In this document: in pieces, positions 1,982 through 17,072 of the stretch | How positions within the stretch are numbered: the first letter of the stretch is position 1 | Layout: the number at the start of each line of letters is the position of its first letter | Assembly: GCA_964648855.1 (NCBI GenBank) | Contig: CAZYLT010000005.1 | Span: 30,001 to 62,000 of the forward strand | DNA from: an uncultured archaeon | Lineage (GTDB): Archaea; Asgardarchaeota; Thorarchaeia; Thorarchaeales; Thorarchaeaceae | Length of the DNA: 32,000 nucleotides | Direction: 5' to 3' | Notes under the pieces: generated by a model | The model's database searches: none | What the model saw: only the letters and a program-made list of their open reading frames with translations | What the model was told of the DNA's origin: nothing | Program-made: the position numbers and the translations under genes

Positions 1982-3382
1982 ATGGGCAAGAAGTTTTATC
2001 CACAGGGTGTGATGCCCGCCCTCGTGACTCCATTTACCAAAGATGGAGACATGATGGAGGAGAATTTTCAGCAAGTAATTGACTATACAATCGAAAAAGG
2101 TGTTACTGGGGTTGTTCCCGCAGGAACCACCGGCGAGTTCGTATACATGAGAACGGAGGAACGAAAGAAACTCCTACGCCTAACGGTAGACTATGTCAAT
2201 GGCAGGGTTCCAGTAGTTGCCGGGACAGGTCAGAATAGCACAAGAGCGACCATAGAACTGACCAAATATGCTGCTGATATCGGTTGTGACGCAGCACTGG
2301 TAATTTCCCCATTCTACCTTCGACCAAGTGATAAGGGCTACTTTGAACACTATCAAGCGGTCGCGCTAAAAGGGGGACTACCTGTTATTGCATACAATAT
2401 TCCTCAATGCACGTTGGGATGGCTGCAATCAAATGTACTTGAAGACTTGGCTGAGATTGACACCATGGTTGGCGTTAAGGATAGTAGCGGCAACATCGGT
2501 CATACAGTAGAGCTTATTCAGAAGCTTAGAGGAAAGATGTCAGTAATCATAGGACATGATGAGTGCTTTCTATCAGCTGTTGCTGCAGGGGCTGATGCTG
2601 CAATAATGGCGTCGGCAAATATCATGCCACACTTGTGGCTGGATATAATGAAGGAAGTGAAAGATGGCAATTTTGGCAAAGCAAGAGATTTGCAGCTCTC
2701 AGCTCAGACCTTTGCACGAATTGTCACACGCCACGGCGGCGCTCCTCCAGTAAAGGCTGCGCTAAGAATGATGGGCATAGATGCGGGAATTGCAAGAATG
2801 CCTTTGAACAGTGGCGGCACACTCACCGTCGAATTGAAGGATGAAATTAGGATCGAACTCGAGAAGCTTGGTCTTATCGAAAAGAAGGATCATAAGGAGC
2901 TCAAGACTGATCTTGATGTTCTTAAGGCAATAGAGAAGCAAGGATTCAAGATTTCAAATCCAGAGATGATAAAGACTTCACGCATTCATAATGATATAAT
3001 TTCAGTAGGGGTTGCTGTAGGCGCAAAGACGGGAGATCTTGGTCGTGCTTTTGCCAGGTTACTAACAACTCCCCGAAATGGTCATGAAGCCCTGACGATA
3101 ATTCTCGAGCCAAACCTTGCCGTAAAGCCTAGTAGTATCATGTGGCCTGCAAGGAGAATAAAATCAATGCGCCAGGCTTCCATGTTTTATGGACCGGTCC
3201 AATCCGGCGCTGGGAAGGCAATTTCTAGGCTCTTGCGAGATAATAGAATTCCTAGTGAGGCGTTGAATAGCCAGGCCATACTGATTGTTGCAGACATTGA
3301 CTTGAATTACAGGGATAGGCGAGCAGTGACACACGCAACAGAAGAAGCAGTACGTACTGCATTAGAGGAGATTTGGAGGTAA
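1982..3382 (+). CDS. DapA/NAL-family class I aldolase fused to a degenerate formaldehyde-activating enzyme (Fae) domain, paralog 1
   Basis: PALVTPF, GTTGE, PFY, YNIP, KDSSG (Schiff-base Lys codon 2477-2479); C-terminal AF..L..GH..L..LEPNLAVKP..IK..RQA.MFYGPVQ matches the Fae core; GGTGA SD at 1972-1976 supports ATG 1982. Confidence 0.88.
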   Translation: MGKKFYPQGVMPALVTPFTKDGDMMEENFQQVIDYTIEKGVTGVVPAGTTGEFVYMRTEERKKLLRLTVDYVNGRVPVVAGTGQNSTRATIELTKYAADIGCDAALVISPFYLRPSDKGYFEHYQAVALKGGLPVIAYNIPQCTLGWLQSNVLEDLAEIDTMVGVKDSSGNIGHTVELIQKLRGKMSVIIGHDECFLSAVAAGADAAIMASANIMPHLWLDIMKEVKDGNFGKARDLQLSAQTFARIVTRHGGAPPVKAALRMMGIDAGIARMPLNSGGTLTVELKDEIRIELEKLGLIEKKDHKELKTDLDVLKAIEKQGFKISNPEMIKTSRIHNDIISVGVAVGAKTGDLGRAFARLLTTPRNGHEALTIILEPNLAVKPSSIMWPARRIKSMRQASMFYGPVQSGAGKAISRLLRDNRIPSEALNSQAILIVADIDLNYRDRRAVTHATEEAVRTALEEIWR

Positions 3383-3387
3383 AGAGA

Positions 3388-4860
3388 ATGACCGATTTCA
3401 GGTTTAAAGGTGTATATCCAGCGCTTGTGACTCCTTTCGATGCAAATGGCGTCGAAGAGGAAGAGTACAGAAATCTGATTGATTTCACTATAAAATCAGG
3501 AGCCACCGGCATAGTGCCATGTGGTACAACTGGTGAGTTCACATCAATGCGATTCGAAGAAAAACTGGATGCAATTGAAATTGCCTGTGACGCCGCTAAG
3601 AACCGTGTGCCAGTTATTGCTGGAACTGGCGCCGCGCATACAGGGGACGTAATCAAGTTAACACGAAGAGCCGCTGAATATGGCGCAAGTGCTGCTCTTG
3701 TGGTCACACCCTACTTCCTCAAACCCAGTAACAAAGAGGTATTCGAGCACTTTGAAAAGGTTGCTAATAACTCTGATATCCCAATATTCATGTATAACAT
3801 ACCTCAAGTAACTGGAGTTCCCATGCATTGGACCCTAGTTGACGGTCTTCGGGAAATCGATGGAATCATCGGAATGAAGGATTCGAGTGGAAACCTAATC
3901 AATCTCACAACAATCCTCGTAAGAAGACCAGACGATTTTCAGGTAGTGGTCGGGCACGATGAGGTCGCATTACCGGCCCTGGCAAGTGGATGCGATGGTG
4001 CTATTCTTGCAAGTGCAAACATATTCCCTGATAGATACATCAGGATGCAGAATGCTCTAGCAGCAGGTGACCTCCGAGAGGCTCTAATCACCCAAAGGAG
4101 TATACAACGGACAGTCAGAATCATCGTAAACAAGGGTGGTGGGCTTGCTGTCAAGGCTGCACTCAACATGATGGGCATACCCGTTGGAAAAGCTAGACCT
4201 CCTTTGATTGAAGGCGATGTCTTGAGTTATGAGGATATTGATGAATTACGTACCTGCCTAGAAGACTTGCAGCTGATTCCTCGAGGACGCGTAACATTCA
4301 GAGCAGGTGAGAATTCCATTGTGGCTGAAGCATATCCAAAGGCAGTTGGCCTGGTTCCAGACTCTGTAGATGATATCTCATTGTTACATGGTGAGTCGCT
4401 TTGTGGTGGAGGTACAGAGGTTGCCCATGTTGACTTGATTGTGGGGCTACGAGATGGACCTATGAAAGAAACACTGAAGAATGCTGGAAAGATCAAGGAT
4501 GGCTTTCATTCCTCCAACATCATTAAGAGTTTAGAACCGACTACTGTCTTTGCACCAACAGTTACTGTGACAACCGAGAAACACCAGAAGCTCATCTATG
4601 ATGTTGCACAGAAAGCCGTTTCTGATGCTGTTTCCCGATCAATCACTGATGGCGTAATTCCAGAGGAGCTAGTCGATGATCTCATATTGGCTGTGAATGT
4701 TTTTGTGCATCCTGATGCAACCAATCCAAGGCGGGTTCATATCAACAACTTCAGAGCAGTGCGTCATGCATTACGCAGAGCAATCGAAGGTAGACCGTCA
4801 AGGGCCGAGATTGAAGCCCGGATTGATTCCGCTAGGCACCCATTCGCCTACAATCCATAA
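3388..4860 (+). CDS. DapA/NAL-family class I aldolase fused to a Fae domain, paralog 2
   Basis: PALVTPF, GTTGE, PYF, YNIP, KDSSG (Lys codon 3877-3879); C-terminal GESLCGGGTEVAHVDLIVG ... VFVHPDA ... RAIEGRP ... ARHPFA is a clear Fae signature; GGAGGT SD at 3375-3380; 5 nt after the paralog 1 stop. Confidence 0.9.
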   Translation: MTDFRFKGVYPALVTPFDANGVEEEEYRNLIDFTIKSGATGIVPCGTTGEFTSMRFEEKLDAIEIACDAAKNRVPVIAGTGAAHTGDVIKLTRRAAEYGASAALVVTPYFLKPSNKEVFEHFEKVANNSDIPIFMYNIPQVTGVPMHWTLVDGLREIDGIIGMKDSSGNLINLTTILVRRPDDFQVVVGHDEVALPALASGCDGAILASANIFPDRYIRMQNALAAGDLREALITQRSIQRTVRIIVNKGGGLAVKAALNMMGIPVGKARPPLIEGDVLSYEDIDELRTCLEDLQLIPRGRVTFRAGENSIVAEAYPKAVGLVPDSVDDISLLHGESLCGGGTEVAHVDLIVGLRDGPMKETLKNAGKIKDGFHSSNIIKSLEPTTVFAPTVTVTTEKHQKLIYDVAQKAVSDAVSRSITDGVIPEELVDDLILAVNVFVHPDATNPRRVHINNFRAVRHALRRAIEGRPSRAEIEARIDSARHPFAYNP

Positions 4861-5193
4861 GACAGGTCTTTCCCATATAATTGAAGTCTGTTCCAATTGG
4901 CATTAATCGATGGAGCGATATTCGGTCTCTTCAACCGAGTTAATGCAAAAATCAAACATTTGTCCATTTGTTAAGTCTGCTGCATGCTATCATGTTCTCT
5001 AGTTGCCTATGAATAGTACGTCCTGTCATGCCCATTGAAGACTTCTCTAGAAAGCCCAATGGAATGCAATAAACGGGGATTTCAACAGCCTCACTTCCGT
5101 CTATTCCTATATATAGCTGGGTGTGGACTGCATTCATGCGTCTAGCATCCTAACGGCGATGGCGTCACCACCGCATCCGTGGAATGAAAAAAT

Positions 5194-5415
5194 ATGGTTG
5201 AGACCTGCATAATCCAGCTGAAGGAGCTACCCTCACGCAGTTTACAGAGTCAAGTGCGAAGCTTCATCAATGGACAGAAGGTGTCAGTTATGGACTCATC
5301 TGGACGACTCTATGAAGTAGGAATCAAACAGAACAAGCTGGTTTTGATATCCGATGACATCTACTATGCCTACAAAACTGACGGGGATTGTGGGTTGGGT
5401 TCTGTGTCCTACTGA
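5194..5415 (+). CDS. Small hypothetical protein (73 aa)
   Basis: ATG-started ORF with plausible alpha/beta composition in an otherwise empty region; TATA-like tatatata at about 5108-5115; no recognised family, no clear SD. Confidence 0.5.
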   Translation: MVETCIIQLKELPSRSLQSQVRSFINGQKVSVMDSSGRLYEVGIKQNKLVLISDDIYYAYKTDGDCGLGSVSY

Positions 5416-5601
5416 TTGAGCAAAGACGGGTCTCAGCCACCCTCTCATTTTAGAATCTAAGAAACAATGTGGCAAGTTTCAGCCTGCTCTTGGGTCTTCA
5501 TAGCCTCGTGGCTCAGACAGGGGTAGCGTCTTCATCGACCGCTAAATAATTGGAAGAAAGATTACTTATCAATATGTGGCACTATGCGAACATTCGGCTA
5601 A

Positions 5602-6122
5602 AACATTCATCTTCTGGAATCAAAGCTGACCATCGAGTTCTGGGTGGAGGTGTAGGGTGCTAATTATGGTAGTGCCATTGGTATCTGCGCTGCTGCAAGA
5701 GACCCCCGCATCGATGCTTTATGTCTTCGTGCACCTGTTTATGATACGTTATGGTTCGCCCAATCACCTGGATTCGCCCTGCAGCTAATCACATCGTGGA
5801 AACGGGTCCAAGTCAAGTAAGAGGTATTGCTGAGCGTGACACTCAAGGCCTGATTCTCAAGACTCTGGTTGATGACGCAAAGATACACAATCCAATGAAC
5901 GCGATATCTAAGATCTCTCCTCGTCCATTATTCATCATTCACGGTTCCGATAATCAAGGCATCGACTTGGCTGGAGTCAAGCGTCTTTTTAAAGCGGCTG
6001 GTGAGCCAAAGGACCTAGCTGTTGTTGAAGGTGCTGACCATGTATTATCTGACCCCACTGCGTATGAGATTACAATGGAATCCACGGTTTATTGGTCTTC
6101 AAATATATCCAAAGCAAGATAG
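5602..6122 (+). pseudogene. Decayed alpha/beta-hydrolase pseudogene
   Basis: One frame reads LLESKLTIEFWVEV*GANYGSAIGICAAARDPRIDALCLRAPVYD (nucleophile-elbow region, in-frame TAG 5653-5655), then shifts frame near 5768 into WIRPAANHI...ISPRPLFIIHGSDN...VEGADH; N-terminal part not recognisable. Confidence 0.8.
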
Positions 6123-10933: not shown

Positions 10934-11803
10934 ATGAGCATCTTTAAAAGCCAAACTCGAGAGCTTCGCGATGACCCGGGAAAAACACCTAGGAGAGTAA
11001 TGACTATTAGCCGGAAGAAATGGGGCAAATCAGCAGCTAAGACAGAACGTGTCATTAGAGATGCTGTGCCTAAAGAAGAAGTCCTGGACGAGATAAATGA
11101 ATACCTGAAGAATGCCAAGTCGGTCACAAGATTTGACCTTGCAAACAAGTTTGGTATCAGGGCTAGCGTTGCAAAAAGGATTTTGAAAGAGCATGAGCAT
11201 GAAGGACGCCTGATTCCATATATCCGTGAGAGTGGCTTTGTTGTCTACACCACTCCTGAGGAGATGGAAAAACGTGAGCGCGGAGTACCCATCATGACTC
11301 AGGATGTTCTCGAAGAAGTTGCTGCTTCAACTCCCAAAGAATCTGTAATTGATGAGGAAATGGAGGCGGCATTGGCTGCGGCATCATCCGTGGGACCGGT
11401 AAAGCCCAGCAAATTAGCAAGAAAGAGAAGAGAAGCTGGTGAGAAAAAGGAGCGGAAGGATGTTCGTCCTGAAGTTGTTGTAGAGCCATTAGAGGAAGAA
11501 CCTACTCCCGAACCTGAGAAGGAGCCCAAGAAGGAACCTGAGAAGGAGCCCAAGAAGGAACCCAAGAAGGAACCTGAAAAGGAACCTGTGAAGAAGATGG
11601 AGAAGCCAACTCTTCAAGATATTGATGGCATTGGACCCAAAACTGCAGAGGGCCTAAAAGCGGCCGGGGCACCGACTGTATACCGTCTATCTACAAAGGA
11701 TCCCGAAGAACTCTCCGAGAAGGTTGACGGCTTGGGACTAAAAACTGCAGAAAAAATCATTGAAACTGCAGACAAATTATGGACCAAATACAAAAATCAA
11801 TGA
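10934..11803 (+). CDS. rps25e: Ribosomal protein eS25 with a long low-complexity linker and C-terminal helix-hairpin-helix domain
   Basis: KKWGK...K.VT.FDLA.KFGIRASVAKRILKE...EG.L......VVYT resembles the eS25 winged helix; C-terminal LQDIDGIGPKTAEGL and VDGLGLKTAEKII are tandem HhH motifs. Confidence 0.75.
   Translation: MSIFKSQTRELRDDPGKTPRRVMTISRKKWGKSAAKTERVIRDAVPKEEVLDEINEYLKNAKSVTRFDLANKFGIRASVAKRILKEHEHEGRLIPYIRESGFVVYTTPEEMEKRERGVPIMTQDVLEEVAASTPKESVIDEEMEAALAAASSVGPVKPSKLARKRREAGEKKERKDVRPEVVVEPLEEEPTPEPEKEPKKEPEKEPKKEPKKEPEKEPVKKMEKPTLQDIDGIGPKTAEGLKAAGAPTVYRLSTKDPEELSEKVDGLGLKTAEKIIETADKLWTKYKNQ
11510..11593 (+). repeat. Coding tandem repeat, 7 x 12 nt (EPEK/EPKK)
   Basis: gaacctgagaag gagcccaagaag gaacctgagaag gagcccaagaag gaacccaagaag gaacctgaaaag gaacctgtgaag. 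Confidence 0.95.
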
Positions 11804-11880: not shown

Positions 11881-12546
11881 TCATCTCAGCTCGGCTATTT
11901 GCTTATCAACATCTTCGAGCTGCGTATCCAATTCTGCTTCCTTTGACTTGTACTCCTCTTCCGGAATATAGCCTCTCATGTAATCGAACCGAAGATCTGT
12001 AAGAGCAGCTTTCAGACGGTCCTTCTGTTGCAGAAGGAAATCAAGCTGATCATCGCCTTCTTCTGTTGGCTCTTCAGGTACTGTGTCTGGAATCGCCTCA
12101 GGCTCTGCTATGGCTTCGGGTTCGGAAGGAGCCATGCTTTCAGGCTCAGAAGTAATTTCCGGTTCAAGCTCTGATTCTGGCTCGGGTTGAGAAACAGGAA
12201 CAGGTTCAGGCTCAATAGGAGTTACGGGTTCAGAAGTAATCTCTGGTTCTGGTTCCGGCTCAGGTGCAGGTTCTGCAGCTGGTTCTGGCTCCGGCGCAGG
12301 TTCTGCTTCTGTGGATGTTGTGCCGGTCGGTTTAACACTCTCCATCTGTTCCATGTTTTTTCGTAGCTGGTCTATCTGGTTAGCAATCTCTCCAAAACTA
12401 TCATTTATTGTCTGGTTGATATTCATCTTCATTTTTGTCAAGTTCTCAGCCAGCTCATCTGCCAGTTTCTTTGTTTCAGATACTTTACTGGCAAAATTCT
12501 TGATTGATTCCAATTGTTCCAACATTTCGCTAATATCAAATGACAT
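11881..12546 (-). CDS. Coiled-coil / Pro-Glu-rich linker / C-terminal helical-hairpin protein (steadiness-box- or SHOCT-like)
   Basis: Heptad-rich N-terminus, about 95-aa EPEP linker, C-terminal L..L..DYMRGYIPEEEY..KEAEL hairpin; AGGTGA SD supports ATG 12546. Confidence 0.75.
   Translation of the reverse strand: MSFDISEMLEQLESIKNFASKVSETKKLADELAENLTKMKMNINQTINDSFGEIANQIDQLRKNMEQMESVKPTGTTSTEAEPAPEPEPAAEPAPEPEPEPEITSEPVTPIEPEPVPVSQPEPESELEPEITSEPESMAPSEPEAIAEPEAIPDTVPEEPTEEGDDQLDFLLQQKDRLKAALTDLRFDYMRGYIPEEEYKSKEAELDTQLEDVDKQIAELR
12143..12249 (-). repeat. Dispersed 23-nt duplication within the Pro/Glu linker (EPEITSEP x2)
   Basis: ggctcagaagtaatttccggttc (12143-12165) and ggttcagaagtaatctctggttc (12227-12249), 3 mismatches. 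Confidence 0.8.
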
Positions 12547-12643
12547 TTTACTCACCTAGTTCTGAAGCCGTCATCTCATAGATTCTCTGCATGTTCTTAA
12601 CCTTTGTCGTGACTGACTCAACGCCCATAGCACCCGTACTATC

Positions 12644-13504
12644 CTAATTCTCCTTCTTGTCCGACTTCCCCTCTAGAATTGCTTTCCTGATAATCTGAAT
12701 CAGCCTATCTCGGTAAGAAACGTCTATAGCAACTAGTTCGTATGTCGATACGCCGAGAATCTGACCAACTCTTTCGGGTGTCAGAGCCGTAGGGAGGTCC
12801 TGCTTGTTGGCTATGCCAATTAGTTTTGCATCCGGGACTTCTTCCTTTACCAAAGAAACGAGTTTCTTGCTTCTCAATACGTTTTCTAGGGTGCTGTCAG
12901 TTACAACAACAACAACCTGTGCATTTGCTATCATCTTTGCCCAGAGAATACTGAACCTTGATTGTCCAGCCAAGTCCCATAAAACAATGTTGGCATTTTC
13001 GACCTCTTCGGGCAGTTTCTTGATACTAACACCGATTGTAGGATCATGCACCAGTGGCAACGTTTCTCCTCTGAGAAGCCGCAAAGTGGTTGTTTTCCCA
13101 ACACCTGCATATCCTAGGATTGCGACTTTAACCATGGTGACCGCAATCTCATCAACCTTTTCGCCAAATCCGTCGAGAGGCTGATGTTCCCTTGCCAAGT
13201 CAATGTACTGGTTGACAAAGAGGTCAATTAGCTGGCTGATTTTTTCTTCTATCTGCTCAGCATCATCTGCTTTATCTGCGATGAAAACAAAAGTGAACTC
13301 TTCCCTAATTGCATAGAAGAATCTGGATACCGAGAGATTCATAAATTCAGGCTTTTCATCCAAATCAACTGAATTAAGAAATTCGGTTAGACCGATTAAG
13401 AACTCGATTAGGCTGTTCTTGGATTCCACTTGTGTATATTCTTTGGAAAAAACGATATTGCCATCGCTTTCCAGTACATAGACGCTTCTAATCAACAGGC
13501 TCAC
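12644..13504 (-). CDS. Longin-domain / Ras-superfamily (Arf-like) small GTPase fusion
   Basis: N-terminal IRSVYVLESDGNIVFSKEY...FFYAIREEFTFVFIAD longin pattern; G1 GYAGVGKTT, G2 PTIG, G3 WDLAGQ, G4 ANKQDLP; true start may be TTG 13495. Confidence 0.9.
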   Translation of the reverse strand: MSLLIRSVYVLESDGNIVFSKEYTQVESKNSLIEFLIGLTEFLNSVDLDEKPEFMNLSVSRFFYAIREEFTFVFIADKADDAEQIEEKISQLIDLFVNQYIDLAREHQPLDGFGEKVDEIAVTMVKVAILGYAGVGKTTTLRLLRGETLPLVHDPTIGVSIKKLPEEVENANIVLWDLAGQSRFSILWAKMIANAQVVVVVTDSTLENVLRSKKLVSLVKEEVPDAKLIGIANKQDLPTALTPERVGQILGVSTYELVAIDVSYRDRLIQIIRKAILEGKSDKKEN

Positions 13505-14603
13505 CCCAATGTTGGGTTAAGAGTTCCAAGTATCTTGCTGCTATATCTGAAGCTACTTCCTTATCAAGCAATTTGCGAGATATGACTGCTAACGCGTAAA
13601 TCGGCATGAATGACTCAATTGTGGGATTAGTGATGAGTGCCCAGAGACCCTCATGCTCGAAAAAGGTAACCACCCTATTCGATTGAAGGTCCCAAAGAGA
13701 TGACTGAACTACCGATTCAGGAAAGGCGGTATTTTCTGATATTTGTTTAACCGACATTGGTTTCTCCCTGAGACTACTTAGAACAACGTAGTCAATGCTA
13801 TCAGCCAAGATTGATGCTATAATCTTTCTATCTTCTATTATGGGTGAATTTGAATCTTCCACAGGAATTGTTGGGTTGTAGCCCTTTTCAGGCGGAGGCG
13901 GTGAAAAGAACTTCTTTACCGATTGCCGATATTTCTCGATTGAATCGGGATATTCTACGCTTGCAGTTTGGAGCGACTCGATAGGTGGGGCTCTATAGCA
14001 AAAGATGTCCTTCAGAAAAAAGACTGTTTCTTGTGTCTTCTTTACAATTTCAACTTTGGCCAGACCATTGTTGATTAAGGGTGCGAAAGCATCTCGAATG
14101 TTGATATCATCACTCTGGGTTTGTCCCTTCAACCACATGGAGAGCTTTGCTGCGGTTTGGATGGATTCCTGCTGCATATTTTCAAGGACCAATGCTGTGG
14201 ACGGAGTCAAGAACACTTCTGCAGTCCGTTGTTCCTCTGTTCTCTCTGGAAGAACACTCTTCTTTCTCAGAATCTCTCCAAGGTCAACCAATTCCGGATT
14301 TCTGTTCAATAATTCAAGAATCAATCTTCCCATGCCTCTCACCAATCCTCTTACTTGGTCAGGAGTAGTTTCCTCGGATAAAGCGAAACAGACAGTCGTT
14401 TCAGGATGGTCAAGTAGTTTGAATGAGAGGACTCTTAGTTCATCTATCTCTGAAAACTTGATTTGTTCTTTCTTACCCTTCTGCTGGTCAAAAAAGACAA
14501 GATTGAGAATTTTCTCATTCAGAGATAGACCCGGTGGGTATCTCTTCTCAACTAAGAACCCCTGAAAATCATCTAAGCGTACCACAAAGATAGCATCAAT
14601 CAT
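13488..14603 (-). CDS. uDENN/longin-like N-terminal domain protein with winged-helix domains
   Basis: N-terminus IDAIFVVRLDDFQGFLVEKRYP fits the uDENN/NPR2-type I..I...hD...G..h...YP pattern; C-terminal VLSSLREKPMSVKQISENTAFPESVVQSSLWDLQSNRVV is a wHTH; overlaps the GTPase start. Confidence 0.65.
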   Translation of the reverse strand: MIDAIFVVRLDDFQGFLVEKRYPPGLSLNEKILNLVFFDQQKGKKEQIKFSEIDELRVLSFKLLDHPETTVCFALSEETTPDQVRGLVRGMGRLILELLNRNPELVDLGEILRKKSVLPERTEEQRTAEVFLTPSTALVLENMQQESIQTAAKLSMWLKGQTQSDDINIRDAFAPLINNGLAKVEIVKKTQETVFFLKDIFCYRAPPIESLQTASVEYPDSIEKYRQSVKKFFSPPPPEKGYNPTIPVEDSNSPIIEDRKIIASILADSIDYVVLSSLREKPMSVKQISENTAFPESVVQSSLWDLQSNRVVTFFEHEGLWALITNPTIESFMPIYALAVISRKLLDKEVASDIAARYLELLTQHWGEPVD

Positions 14604-14741
14604 TTGAGTTCCCTGCTTTCGAGAGGTTGCTTAATGATAAATATTTGTCCTCCATCTCTACAGTCTAGTTATCTATTGCTTATATCTTTGCGCGCTAGAA
14701 AGTGTGAAAAGGAAACAAACCAACATGAGGACCGAAGGAAC
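14604..14741. promoter_or_regulatory. Divergent promoter region between the uDENN-GTPase genes and the ESCRT-II-like gene
   Basis: 138-nt AT-rich gap with TATA-like elements (ttaatgataaatattt, cttatatc) between head-to-head genes. Confidence 0.45.
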
Positions 14742-17072
14742 ATGAGCACGCCTGATGTCAAGGCAATCGTGCCAGTAATGGCAACCAAACAATTGAGCCC
14801 AGTTGGCGGTATACCCATGTTACAAGCAATACCCATGGATTACTCTCTTGCTGCATCTGTCATTAGGTATTTGCAGAATACAAATCCAGAGGACTTGGAA
14901 TTCATTTTGAAAGCGTATCTTCCAATCGCTGGAGTATACACTACAAAAGCTGGGCAGTATTTTGGTTTAGAACCCATTGGAGCAAACATGATTCAGAATA
15001 TACTGCCGCATGTTAGTTTGCCAGCCTTCCCAAGTAGTATCTCGGAGGCTAATACAATCACTGAGGCAACTCATGCTTTGGAGAACACACTGAGATGGTT
15101 CGATGAGAACGATTTCACACATGTCGAATCAATTGCAGGTGTGATTCCTCGTGACGCCGCCAAGGCTATTTTCGGTATGATTGAATGGCCGGACAAGGGT
15201 GCAGAGGAACCCTATTCAGTTAGATTTCCTTCCCCACTGGATTCTAATGATCTTATATCGACGGCCTCAGTGCTGGGAAGGAGAATTGACGCCCTTCATG
15301 GCATATACGACGAACTGAGTGCTCTAGAAAGAAATCTGGGTAACAAGATTGAGAATCTTGTTCAGAATGCCTCGAAGGAAGTCATAACGAGAACCGAGCG
15401 GCTTGACCAGAGAATTTCGGTTCTGAGAGATGACATTGAAAAGATATCTCCGAAAATCGAGTATCTCGAATCCGAAGAGAATCCAGATGCTGCAAAAATC
15501 AAGGCTATGAAAAACACTTTGCAAAATAGAGAAGCAGCTCTTGAACGGGACCAAAAAAGAAGGGAATCTGTCGAAGATAGGATAGGCGAATCAGTAAAGC
15601 ATCTAGAAGAACTACAAACCCAACTTAGTGGCAAGTTGCAGCATACACTCAATGTAGTATCCAACGGTGTTGAGGAATTCTCAGATTTTGCAGTACCGCC
15701 TCAATCTGAGGGCATAGATGGCGAGATACTCCTCTTTCTATTACCACTTCTCCTGTTTGGGCAATCACATAAAGGTCGCTTGCTCATCGACATTCATTCA
15801 TGCGGCAGTCTGCTTGATACTGAGGATAGAGTTGGCATGCGAAGAGACTTCGTGGATCCATTTGAATCCCTTAATGCGCGTTTTGTTACATTCATTTCTG
15901 AGGTATCAGAAACAATAGGTGGTAATGTTTCCATACGACGCTCCTTACTCAAATATGCAGAGGAATACAACCTACTCGCCTTGAGTGAGACTCGAAACAT
16001 GCTGATGGACGGATGTAAACTTCTAGTTTCTGATGGTCTTCTGAAAGATTCATTGGTTGAAGAAGTCAGAAACCTATTGGACTCCATTCCTGTGGCAGAT
16101 GGCATTCGCGCAGAAAGCATCCGAATGGTCCCTTATAGATCAAAAGATGAAAGTGTCGCGACTGTCAGATTTCAAGTTCGTAGTGATTCTGGCCAGGCTA
16201 TCTGTGATGCAATTGTAGAACTTGGAGGACTCCGCCTCAAGACAGACAAAATGGGATTGGTCAGTGTGGATTTACCTCGTAGCAATTATGAGGGACATGT
16301 TCGTGCTGATGGTTTCGTGGAGCGGAAATTCGAATTCAACCTCAATACCTCACAGGACCTGGCAATTCCCATAATACTTGAATCATTGCCTTATGAGGAA
16401 TTGATTTCCCGATCACTCGATAGGCTGGTCAAGAGAACGGAGAATCTTGAATCTATACAATCGCGGTTGAGGAAGGCCTTCGAAGATTATGGTAGCAAGT
16501 TGGTGAAGATTCCGATCTACCGAACCGCGCTCACTGAATTGCTCACTGAGTTAGGATATGAGCCAGAGGCGTGGATTTCCAAGGCGAAAAAGGAGAGTCA
16601 AATGGTGGGTCGATTGCTCAATAAAAGCGCCAGGGAAGACTCAATTCGTAGGGACCTGCTAAGAATCGCAAGAGCTTCAAAGGAATCGGGTGGAATCATA
16701 TTGCTGTCGGAACTCATCACACGCCTTCATGATTTTGGATGGGAGATAGATGTAGATGATTTGGACGAGATTCTGAAGAATCTATCTGATGAAGGTGTCA
16801 TTCAAGGTGTATCTGCACTAGAGGGCGGAGCGAAGCTAGTGAAGTTCATCCCCGTTGGTTTGACCAGTGACCCACGAAGAATTCTCTCTCTGGCATCTAG
16901 GCATAACGGGAAGTTATCGATGGAACAAATACTTGTTGAATTGAATTGGACAGAGGAGCGAGCTCAAAATGCTCTCGAATTGCTGGTCAGCGGTGGTGTG
17001 GCGAAGATTCAAAGAAGTTATGCAAAGAGTACCACCTATTGGTTTCCAGGCTTGATAACTCGAAAAGAATAA
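14742..17072 (+). CDS. Multidomain protein: coiled-coil region + Ig/transthyretin-like (carboxypeptidase-regulatory/PEGA-like) domain + ESCRT-II Vps22/Vps36-like (EAP30) domain
   Basis: C-terminal ~225 aa show Vps22/SNF8 hallmarks: P.YR..L..LGYEP, GGIILLSEL, IDVDDL, P..L..D...IL.LA....GKLS, LNWTEERAQNALELLVSGG, YWFP; central VRSDSGQAI.DAIV....KTDKMG.V...LP..Y..V.ADGF; start moved to ATG 14742. Confidence 0.85.
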   Translation: MSTPDVKAIVPVMATKQLSPVGGIPMLQAIPMDYSLAASVIRYLQNTNPEDLEFILKAYLPIAGVYTTKAGQYFGLEPIGANMIQNILPHVSLPAFPSSISEANTITEATHALENTLRWFDENDFTHVESIAGVIPRDAAKAIFGMIEWPDKGAEEPYSVRFPSPLDSNDLISTASVLGRRIDALHGIYDELSALERNLGNKIENLVQNASKEVITRTERLDQRISVLRDDIEKISPKIEYLESEENPDAAKIKAMKNTLQNREAALERDQKRRESVEDRIGESVKHLEELQTQLSGKLQHTLNVVSNGVEEFSDFAVPPQSEGIDGEILLFLLPLLLFGQSHKGRLLIDIHSCGSLLDTEDRVGMRRDFVDPFESLNARFVTFISEVSETIGGNVSIRRSLLKYAEEYNLLALSETRNMLMDGCKLLVSDGLLKDSLVEEVRNLLDSIPVADGIRAESIRMVPYRSKDESVATVRFQVRSDSGQAICDAIVELGGLRLKTDKMGLVSVDLPRSNYEGHVRADGFVERKFEFNLNTSQDLAIPIILESLPYEELISRSLDRLVKRTENLESIQSRLRKAFEDYGSKLVKIPIYRTALTELLTELGYEPEAWISKAKKESQMVGRLLNKSAREDSIRRDLLRIARASKESGGIILLSELITRLHDFGWEIDVDDLDEILKNLSDEGVIQGVSALEGGAKLVKFIPVGLTSDPRRILSLASRHNGKLSMEQILVELNWTEERAQNALELLVSGGVAKIQRSYAKSTTYWFPGLITRKE

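Follow-up and report, generated by a model that had tools for sequence, protein, structure and literature searches.

Two adjacent genes in a stretch of DNA from an uncultured archaeon of the family Thorarchaeaceae (assembly GCA_964648855.1, contig CAZYLT010000005.1, positions 30,001 to 62,000; these 32,000 nucleotides are called the window below) raise the question of what an enzyme does that joins a DapA-like aldolase barrel to a formaldehyde-activating enzyme (Fae) domain, and why two versions of it should be encoded side by side. An earlier note, made from the sequence alone, had described the genes as co-oriented paralogs 5 nucleotides apart, and its coordinates (1982-3382 and 3388-4860) are exact. 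Judging from sequence comparison and a structural model, the two products, here called A and B, probably form a heteromeric aldolase-Fae enzyme, and a coupling of its aldolase to formaldehyde is likely. The features of the pair are given below in window coordinates.

1982 to 3382, plus strand: gene A, encoding the upstream subunit type of the aldolase-Fae proteins (466 amino acids); start codon ATG at 1982, stop codon TAA at 3380-3382
2003 to 2812, plus strand: DHDPS-family barrel of A (Pfam, residues 8-277); Lys166 codon at 2477-2479, Cys143 at the position of DapA Arg138
3002 to 3367, plus strand: Fae-like domain of A (Pfam, residues 341-462), truncated and without the histidine
3375 to 3379, plus strand: GGAGG, within the 3' end of gene A and 8 nucleotides ahead of the ATG of gene B
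3388 to 4860, plus strand: gene B, encoding the downstream subunit type of the aldolase-Fae proteins (490 amino acids); start codon ATG at 3388
3403 to 4212, plus strand: DHDPS-family barrel of B (Pfam, residues 6-275); Lys164 codon at 3877-3879, Val141 at the position of DapA Arg138
4390 to 4845, plus strand: Fae domain of B (Pfam, residues 335-486); His347 codon at 4426-4428, Asp349 codon at 4432-4434

The co-oriented genes are separated by a spacer of 5 nucleotides (3383-3387), and the position of the GGAGG element inside gene A would fit coupled translation of the two genes. Each protein matches the Pfam DHDPS profile (PF00701; cut-off 22.1) along the whole barrel, A with 1.4e-73 and 247.6 bits and B with 2.3e-71 and 240.3 bits. 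The motifs GTTGE, YNIPQ (listed as YNIP in the earlier note) and KDSSG are present in both, in agreement with the two aldolase barrels that had been described. Both proteins also exceed the cut-off of the TIGR00674 dapA equivalog (206.15), with 214.4 bits for A and 236.1 bits for B. These scores explain the dapA name in databases, an outcome of automatic annotation that had been foreseen. There are 115 A-type and 110 B-type orthologues from Thorarchaeota; the orthologues carry the source labels Thorarchaeota or Promethearchaeota, and they are named either 4-hydroxy-tetrahydrodipicolinate synthase or formaldehyde-activating enzyme.

The earlier note had also assigned a C-terminal Fae domain to each protein and had named the lack of a Fae profile match as grounds for abandoning its proposal. 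Both proteins match PF08714 (cut-off 27), A with 9e-25 and 88 bits over profile positions 14-135 of 159, and B with 1.4e-32 and 113 bits over positions 2-158 of 159. With the Fae model TIGR03126 (cut-off 118.05), B scores above at 121.5 and A below at 78. Thus, the assignment holds for both proteins at the level of Pfam, but the domain of A is incomplete, lacking the His/Asp motif and the last ~25 residues. These are the sole Fae domains in the genome.

What each Fae domain has kept is different. The full motif set comprises AH-x-DL, (E/A)PNL..KP, RQA..(F/Y)GP-x-Q and a C-terminal NY..HPF; neither A nor B carries all of these in one chain, and the single fusion of the Loki type has every one. 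Compared with the stand-alone Fae of Methylobacterium extorquens (PDB 1Y5Y), the domain of B aligns over residues 8-168 (6e-23) with AHVDL and the C-terminal HPF kept, and its His347 and Asp349 align with the AHIDL motif of that protein. The domain of A aligns over residues 17-139 only and has SVGVA where AHIDL stands. What A retains is EPN (376-378), RQA (397-399) and YGPxQ (403-407), the residues missing from its end being those of the C-terminal NN...RHPF tail. B retains NN (453-454) and RHPF (483-486), and its central EPN/GP motifs are deleted or altered.

This division of motifs runs through the family. According to residue counts in a multi-lineage alignment, the Fae histidine is retained in 109 of 110 Thorarchaeota B proteins and in all seven B proteins from elsewhere, but not one of the 120 proteins of the A type has it. 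The aspartate is retained in the same B-type proteins as the histidine, and also in 3 of the 120 of A type. Only B-type proteins have the C-terminal NN...RHPF tail (109/110 in Thorarchaeota, 7/7 in other lineages). Conversely, it is the A type that preserves the central motifs (EPN, K/R-P, RQA and YGPxQ): 112-115 of the 115 Thorarchaeota A proteins have them, and in B they have been deleted or replaced.

A complex model of the Fae domains of A and B reached an ipSAE of 0.87, versus 0.01 for the best control, a result that may partly reflect memory of a known interface given that the Fae homopentamer has already been solved. The ipSAE mark that was applied is reached by 58 of 80 solved complexes and by 2 of 110 mismatched pairs. 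Contact agreement among the model runs was at least 79%, and the partner pLDDT was at least 84. The confident interface is formed by residues 374-382, 396, 404 and 407-408 of A and by residues 347, 349, 357-362 and 482-486 of B, which are exactly the motifs that each subunit retained. The model shows these motifs facing each other across a Fae-type interface, and not binding itself. In the Fae structure paper the pterin is reportedly bound between adjacent subunits, and the roles given here to Fae residues are based on alignment.

The stand-alone Methylobacterium extorquens Fae (1Y5Y/1Y60) is a homopentamer of identical, complete subunits, whereas here the motifs are split and the modelled interface is of a heterodimer type. 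Alignment and model together suggest that A and B are not equivalent paralogues and that each contributes a complementary half of a Fae site. Complementary half-sites make one heteromeric enzyme likelier than two parallel enzymes, and here we depart from the earlier note, which had described two paralogs of the same make-up; both the motif complementarity and the interface model favour a single heteromer.

Why there are two genes is addressed by the Fae-domain tree. When the tree is rooted on canonical Fae, all fusion Fae domains form one clade (support of 99). Within it there is an A clade (98% support) and a B clade (99%), and the single Loki fusion falls outside both. This topology of the sequences supports a single duplication followed by complementary loss. 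The A-then-B order, with the genes overlapping or close, is found in Thorarchaeota, a Korarchaeota-labelled lineage, three other archaeal assemblies (unclassified archaea), at least 10 metagenome-assembled genomes of Chloroflexota/Anaerolineae and one of Spirochaetota. The undivided form, with a single fusion gene, is found in Promethearchaeota (Loki), Bathyarchaeia, Sifarchaeum, Borrarchaeum and Methanofastidiosia.

The Fae family is a small one overall, with 416 clusters when 1.8 billion proteins are grouped at 50% identity. In a set of 400 scanned Asgard genomes, Fae matches occur in 78 of the 85 genomes of the family to which this genome belongs, and positive genomes of that family nearly always have exactly two such matches, with E-values of about 1e-30. 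Other Asgard families have genes of the size of canonical Fae-Hps, matching at about 1e-70; no Fae-Hps is found in Thorarchaeota. No paper describing a DHDPS-Fae or DapA-Fae fusion turned up in full-text searches of the literature library, in line with the earlier statement that no characterised one was known. The complementary degeneration of the Fae domains, the model of the A-B interface and the single duplication are new here.

Could A and B nevertheless be genuine DapA enzymes of lysine biosynthesis that carry an extra domain? DapA (EC 4.3.3.7) provides their best sequence matches and shares with them the fold, GTTGE, Tyr133 and the Schiff-base lysine; the TIGR00674 cut-off is passed by both, and the nearest solved structures by sequence are DHDPS enzymes. 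We compared the barrel residues by alignment with Escherichia coli DapA, NanA and YagE, counting residues in 238 proteins: 115 A and 110 B from Thorarchaeota, 12 from other lineages and one fusion of the Loki type. Position 138, which in DapA is the Arg that binds the carboxylate of aspartate semialdehyde, is Cys in A, Val in B and Leu in NanA and YagE, and Arg is found there in none of the 238 family members. Two residues past the Schiff-base lysine, A and B have Ser, where NanA and YagE have Thr and DapA has Ala. At positions 187-189 the family has HDE, NanA has YDE and DapA has DDA.

In these features A and B resemble E. coli NanA and the 2-keto-3-deoxy-acid aldolases YagE/YjhH, with which they share a non-Arg hydrophobic residue at 138, a hydroxyl residue two past the lysine and xDE at 187-189. 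Unlike those enzymes, they are closer overall to DapA, have TT rather than ST or SG at positions 44-45, are fused to Fae and are proposed to form a tandem heteromeric pair. The lysine (K161 of E. coli DapA) is retained in 115 of 115 Thorarchaeota A proteins and in 106 of 110 B proteins, Tyr133 is retained in every Thorarchaeota sequence, and A and B both have the lysine, the tyrosine and GTTGE. Trp148 of B is invariant and specific to the B type. A complementary Tyr107 (Tyr in Thorarchaeota A, Phe in B) was considered as a further difference between the subunits and dropped, as it fails in other lineages.

The genomes give little room for a lysine-pathway enzyme. In lysine biosynthesis Asd supplies the substrate of DapA and DapB accepts its product. 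DapB is found above the cut-off in 0 of 16 Thorarchaeota genomes, the own genome included. Neither the Asd/ArgC domain (Semialdhyde_dhC) nor homoserine dehydrogenase (Hom) is found in the own genome, which is 94.6% complete; among 15 Thorarchaeota relatives, the former is present in four and the latter in two. The third DHDPS-family gene of the genome was examined as a possible true DapA and rejected because it is KdgD-like and falls under all cut-offs. The combination of residues and context supports the conclusion that A and B are not the DapA of the lysine pathway. We regard the notion of a DapA with an added domain as largely refuted and its truth as very improbable. On the sequence side, at least, the plain DHDPS that the earlier note had named as fatal to its own proposal is not what is observed, with Arg138 in 0 of 238 proteins and with no DapB/Asd context.

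If the pair is not DapA, the best available frame for its function is the one suggested earlier, the archaeal bifunctional Fae-Hps (5,6,7,8-tetrahydromethanopterin hydro-lyase / 3-hexulose-6-phosphate synthase). In that protein, which is found in anaerobic archaea, Fae is likewise joined to a carbon-carbon lyase, one for which formaldehyde is product or substrate. However, the partner there is an Hps of the OMPdecase/HUMPS fold and Fae is N-terminal, whereas here the partner is a class I DHDPS/NAL barrel, Fae is C-terminal, the Fae site is split over two paralogous subunits, and the proposed substrate is a 2-oxo acid and not a sugar phosphate. No Hps is found in the own genome, where the PF00215 matches are PyrF and, weakly, Rpe. 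With no Hps or Fae-Hps, the fused aldolase is the obvious formaldehyde partner. The possibility that these Fae domains serve a ribulose monophosphate (Hps) pathway was rejected: Hps is missing, and the genome has a non-oxidative pentose route (Rpe, transaldolase). The Rpe gene adjoins a transaldolase/FSA gene.

By the logic of Fae-Hps, the architecture speaks for an aldol reaction in which formaldehyde is the aldehyde partner and which is coupled to a pterin. Enzymes of the DHDPS/NAL superfamily characteristically use pyruvate, and when this donor is combined with formaldehyde the product would be 4-hydroxy-2-oxobutanoate. The reversible reaction of pyruvate and formaldehyde to 4-hydroxy-2-oxobutanoate, which the earlier note had proposed, is suggested here by analogy, from the architecture only. 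YagE and YjhH were reportedly screened for promiscuous 4-hydroxy-2-oxobutanoate aldolase activity in work on an engineered homoserine cycle, and to our knowledge chemistry of this kind has so far come only from engineered pathways.

In the mechanism that we infer, the heteromer is a prediction, as are its substrate, its carrier and the direction in which it runs in the cell. Each subunit would supply a DHDPS/NAL-superfamily barrel that acts as a class I (Schiff-base lysine) 2-oxo-acid aldolase, and also one half of a pterin/formaldehyde site of the Fae type, which would be complete only at the A-B Fae interface. The aldolase lysine would form the pyruvate enamine, which would add to formaldehyde; in reverse, 4-hydroxy-2-oxobutanoate would be cleaved to give formaldehyde. 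The composite Fae site would interconvert formaldehyde and the methylene group of a tetrahydropterin carrier, such that no free formaldehyde is released. The carrier would probably be tetrahydromethanopterin (H4MPT) in Thorarchaeota and possibly tetrahydrofolate in bacterial carriers of the genes.

We judge the chances to be about even that A and B constitute one heteromeric enzyme, with two aldolase barrels and a composite Fae site, that carries out pyruvate/formaldehyde chemistry on a pterin carrier. A more specific version is tentative and, taken as a whole, somewhat unlikely. Here the pair would be a natural methylene-pterin:pyruvate hydroxymethyltransferase (4-hydroxy-2-oxobutanoate synthase/lyase) that connects the methyl branch of the Wood-Ljungdahl pathway to C3/C4 compounds and gives the homoserine-family skeleton in Thorarchaeota that have no Asd or Hom, with a Fae site that was split by duplication and complementary decay.

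A series of observations weighs against the proposed enzyme and its pathway. To begin with, no test in this analysis favours formaldehyde, or pyruvate, above other substrates. In the tree of DHDPS domains the A/B split is not resolved at depth, although A groups with A and B with B in three lineages. The surroundings of the fusion genes are not otherwise conserved. Ser replaces the Schiff-base lysine in four Thorarchaeota B proteins, and in one archaeal lineage (L019:3544-6449, GCA_003560875.1) the lysine is lost from both subunits. These losses argue that the aldolase chemistry is dispensable in some carriers. In the latter lineage the GTTGE loop is also degenerate, yet the pair and its Fae motifs persist; the two genes are flanked there by an archaeal riboflavin-pathway reductase gene, an MtnA-like gene and a class II aldolase-like gene.

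Retention of the Fae part by proteins that have lost the lysine fits a different explanation, in which each domain acts on its own. The barrel would be a common aldolase for 4-hydroxy-2-oxo acids or sugar acids, of the KDG, HOGA or NAL type, or no more than a scaffold, Fae would detoxify free formaldehyde, and the fusion would serve co-expression or assembly with no channelling. An active-site signature like that of NanA and YagE agrees with this, as does the fact that the only Fae domains of a genome with Mch are these two. However, the fusion, linker included, has persisted in two domains of life and across a duplication. In the genome there is neither Hps nor any other evident origin of formaldehyde, and the catalytic residues of the aldolase are retained by the large majority of A proteins and of B proteins. 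On these grounds we consider independent domains an unlikely explanation of the pair.

With respect to the carrier of the proposed coupled enzyme, the signs for a coupling to H4MPT are mixed. Mch is present in the own genome, and Ftr, which is not found there, is present in 12 of the 15 Thorarchaeota relatives. But Mtd was not found, the canonical beta-RFAP synthase was not found in the own genome and was found in only one of the 15 relatives, and Mch was found in none of five bacterial carrier genomes. The absence of Mch from these bacteria argues against strict H4MPT dependence. Use of H4MPT in Thorarchaeota is plausible, and H4MPT as an obligatory carrier is doubtful outside Thorarchaeota and not secure within them.

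The proposed link to homoserine is circumstantial. Thorarchaeota mostly have no Asd or Hom, as described above, but Hom is kept in all five bacterial carriers, a point against the idea that the fusion replaces the homoserine route in general. ThrB is found in 0 of 16 Thorarchaeota genomes. It is also missing from Asgard genomes that have canonical ThrC and Hom, and thus the ThrB gap is uninformative on the homoserine route. Auxotrophy explains the Asd, Hom and ThrB gaps of Thorarchaeota equally well. In one lineage a gene for a class I/II (aspartate-type) aminotransferase immediately precedes A, which is circumstantial support for the link. With Hom kept in the bacterial carriers and ThrB missing from Thorarchaeota, an anabolic role towards homoserine would be conjectural and not a general one.

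The best ThrC-family match of Thorarchaeota is a PALP enzyme of ~500 amino acids with a C-terminal PadR DNA-binding domain, which scores far under canonical ThrC. In one relative (G336), the gene for this ThrC-like/PadR protein (L105:2150-3652) is divergent and lies beside genes for the S component of an energy-coupling factor (ECF) transporter and for a protein that we call X428.

X428 is a protein of ~428 amino acids (G000:C37:9369-10661, which is L104:1498-2790 on the minus strand; L010:4683-5963; L034, L042 and others). Its gene adjoins the fusion in loci of the Loki type and of Bathyarchaeia, and in two from Anaerolineae. It has no match in Pfam, NCBIfam or Atlas. Its mean column identity over Asgard, Bathyarchaeia and Anaerolineae sequences is 72%, and the own genome has an orthologue with 62% identity on another contig. 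An AlphaFold2 (AF2) model (pLDDT 73.7) depicts a TIM barrel with an N-terminal helical domain, and only generic TIM-barrel matches were obtained, with TM-scores of about 0.3 and no closely related solved structure.

Among 26 Asgard genomes, which are not phylogenetically independent, 16 have X428 and the fusion, two have X428 only, one has the fusion only and seven have neither; among the five bacterial carriers, X428 is present in one. The X428 gene lies 1-2 kb from the ThrC-like/PadR gene in Thorarchaeota relatives and 2 kb from Hom in one other Asgard genome. We consider X428 to be the best candidate for a partner of the fusion.

A second conserved neighbour, Y311 (~311 amino acids; L024:103-1050, L026:1-936, L057:1826-2755), is without a Pfam match. 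It is encoded just upstream of the aldolase-Fae genes in a Chloroflexota bacterium and in a Methanofastidiosia archaeon, and the two proteins are 60% identical. Homology between Y311 and X428 is not detectable.

The neighbours of the fusion genes bear on another possibility, which is that aldolase and Fae are indeed coupled and that the donor is some other 2-oxo acid, such as 2-oxobutanoate or 2-oxoisovalerate. In that case the pair would be a class I counterpart to hydroxymethyl transfer by enzymes of the PanB type, acting in cofactor or other biosynthesis and not towards homoserine. The analogy to PanB is a functional one: PanB (ketopantoate hydroxymethyltransferase) also takes a hydroxymethyl group from a methylene-pterin and places it on C3 of a 2-oxo acid, but it is metal-dependent, forms no Schiff base and is unrelated in sequence. 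The fusion architecture and the composite Fae site would suit any hydroxymethyl transfer. A strongly conserved TIM-barrel protein, X428, adjoins the fusion in three phyla and in G336 follows the S component of an ECF-type vitamin transporter, a riboflavin-pathway reductase is encoded beside the L019 pair, and the bacterial carriers have kept Hom.

However, PanB is present in the own genome and already covers ketopantoate synthesis there; for this reason the fusion as a replacement for PanB was rejected. Moreover, pyruvate is the characteristic donor of the superfamily, the pyruvate-binding GTTGE and YN motifs are intact, and the cofactor-pathway context is not consistent. An enzyme with another donor is thus rather improbable in our assessment, and pyruvate remains the donor in the reading that we prefer.

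Taken together, sequence, model and analogy to other Fae fusions cause us to consider the A/B pair a real, conserved, mis-annotated and uncharacterised two-subunit aldolase-Fae enzyme, a variant on the Fae-fusion theme for which a C1-C3 reaction is plausible. Hundreds of database entries from Asgard archaea, Bathyarchaeia and Anaerolineae bear the name DapA but cannot be that enzyme, and metabolic reconstructions that derive lysine biosynthesis from them are wrong. The modelled pair would also be a natural case in which an inter-subunit active site was made into an obligate heteromer by duplication and complementary loss. If the proposed chemistry is true, it would be a new natural link that forms a carbon-carbon bond between pterin-bound C1 units and pyruvate, operating in very abundant sediment archaea and in Anaerolineae. 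Such a link would bear on C1 metabolism of sediment microbes, on Asgard physiology and on synthetic formaldehyde or methanol assimilation.

Several other features of the window lie outside the gene pair. An Rfam search of the window gave no match. On the minus strand, a CutA1 gene (1599-2033) is divergent from gene A. Its longest open reading frame overlaps the start of A by ~50 nucleotides, and for this reason the true CutA start is probably further inside. Downstream of gene B, the region 4861-6122 includes ~890 base pairs without an open reading frame of at least 100 amino acids. It ends with an open reading frame at 5751-6122 (123 amino acids) that resembles just the C-terminal portion of an alpha/beta hydrolase (HGxxD...H) and may be a gene remnant. 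Further along, an eS25-like protein with HhH motifs is encoded at 10934-11803. The adjoining region 11881-17072 encodes eukaryote-like domains, including an Arf/Roc-type GTPase, a CdvA/Mis12-like coiled coil and an EAP30/Vps36 (ESCRT-II EAP30) domain that ends a protein of 822 amino acids.

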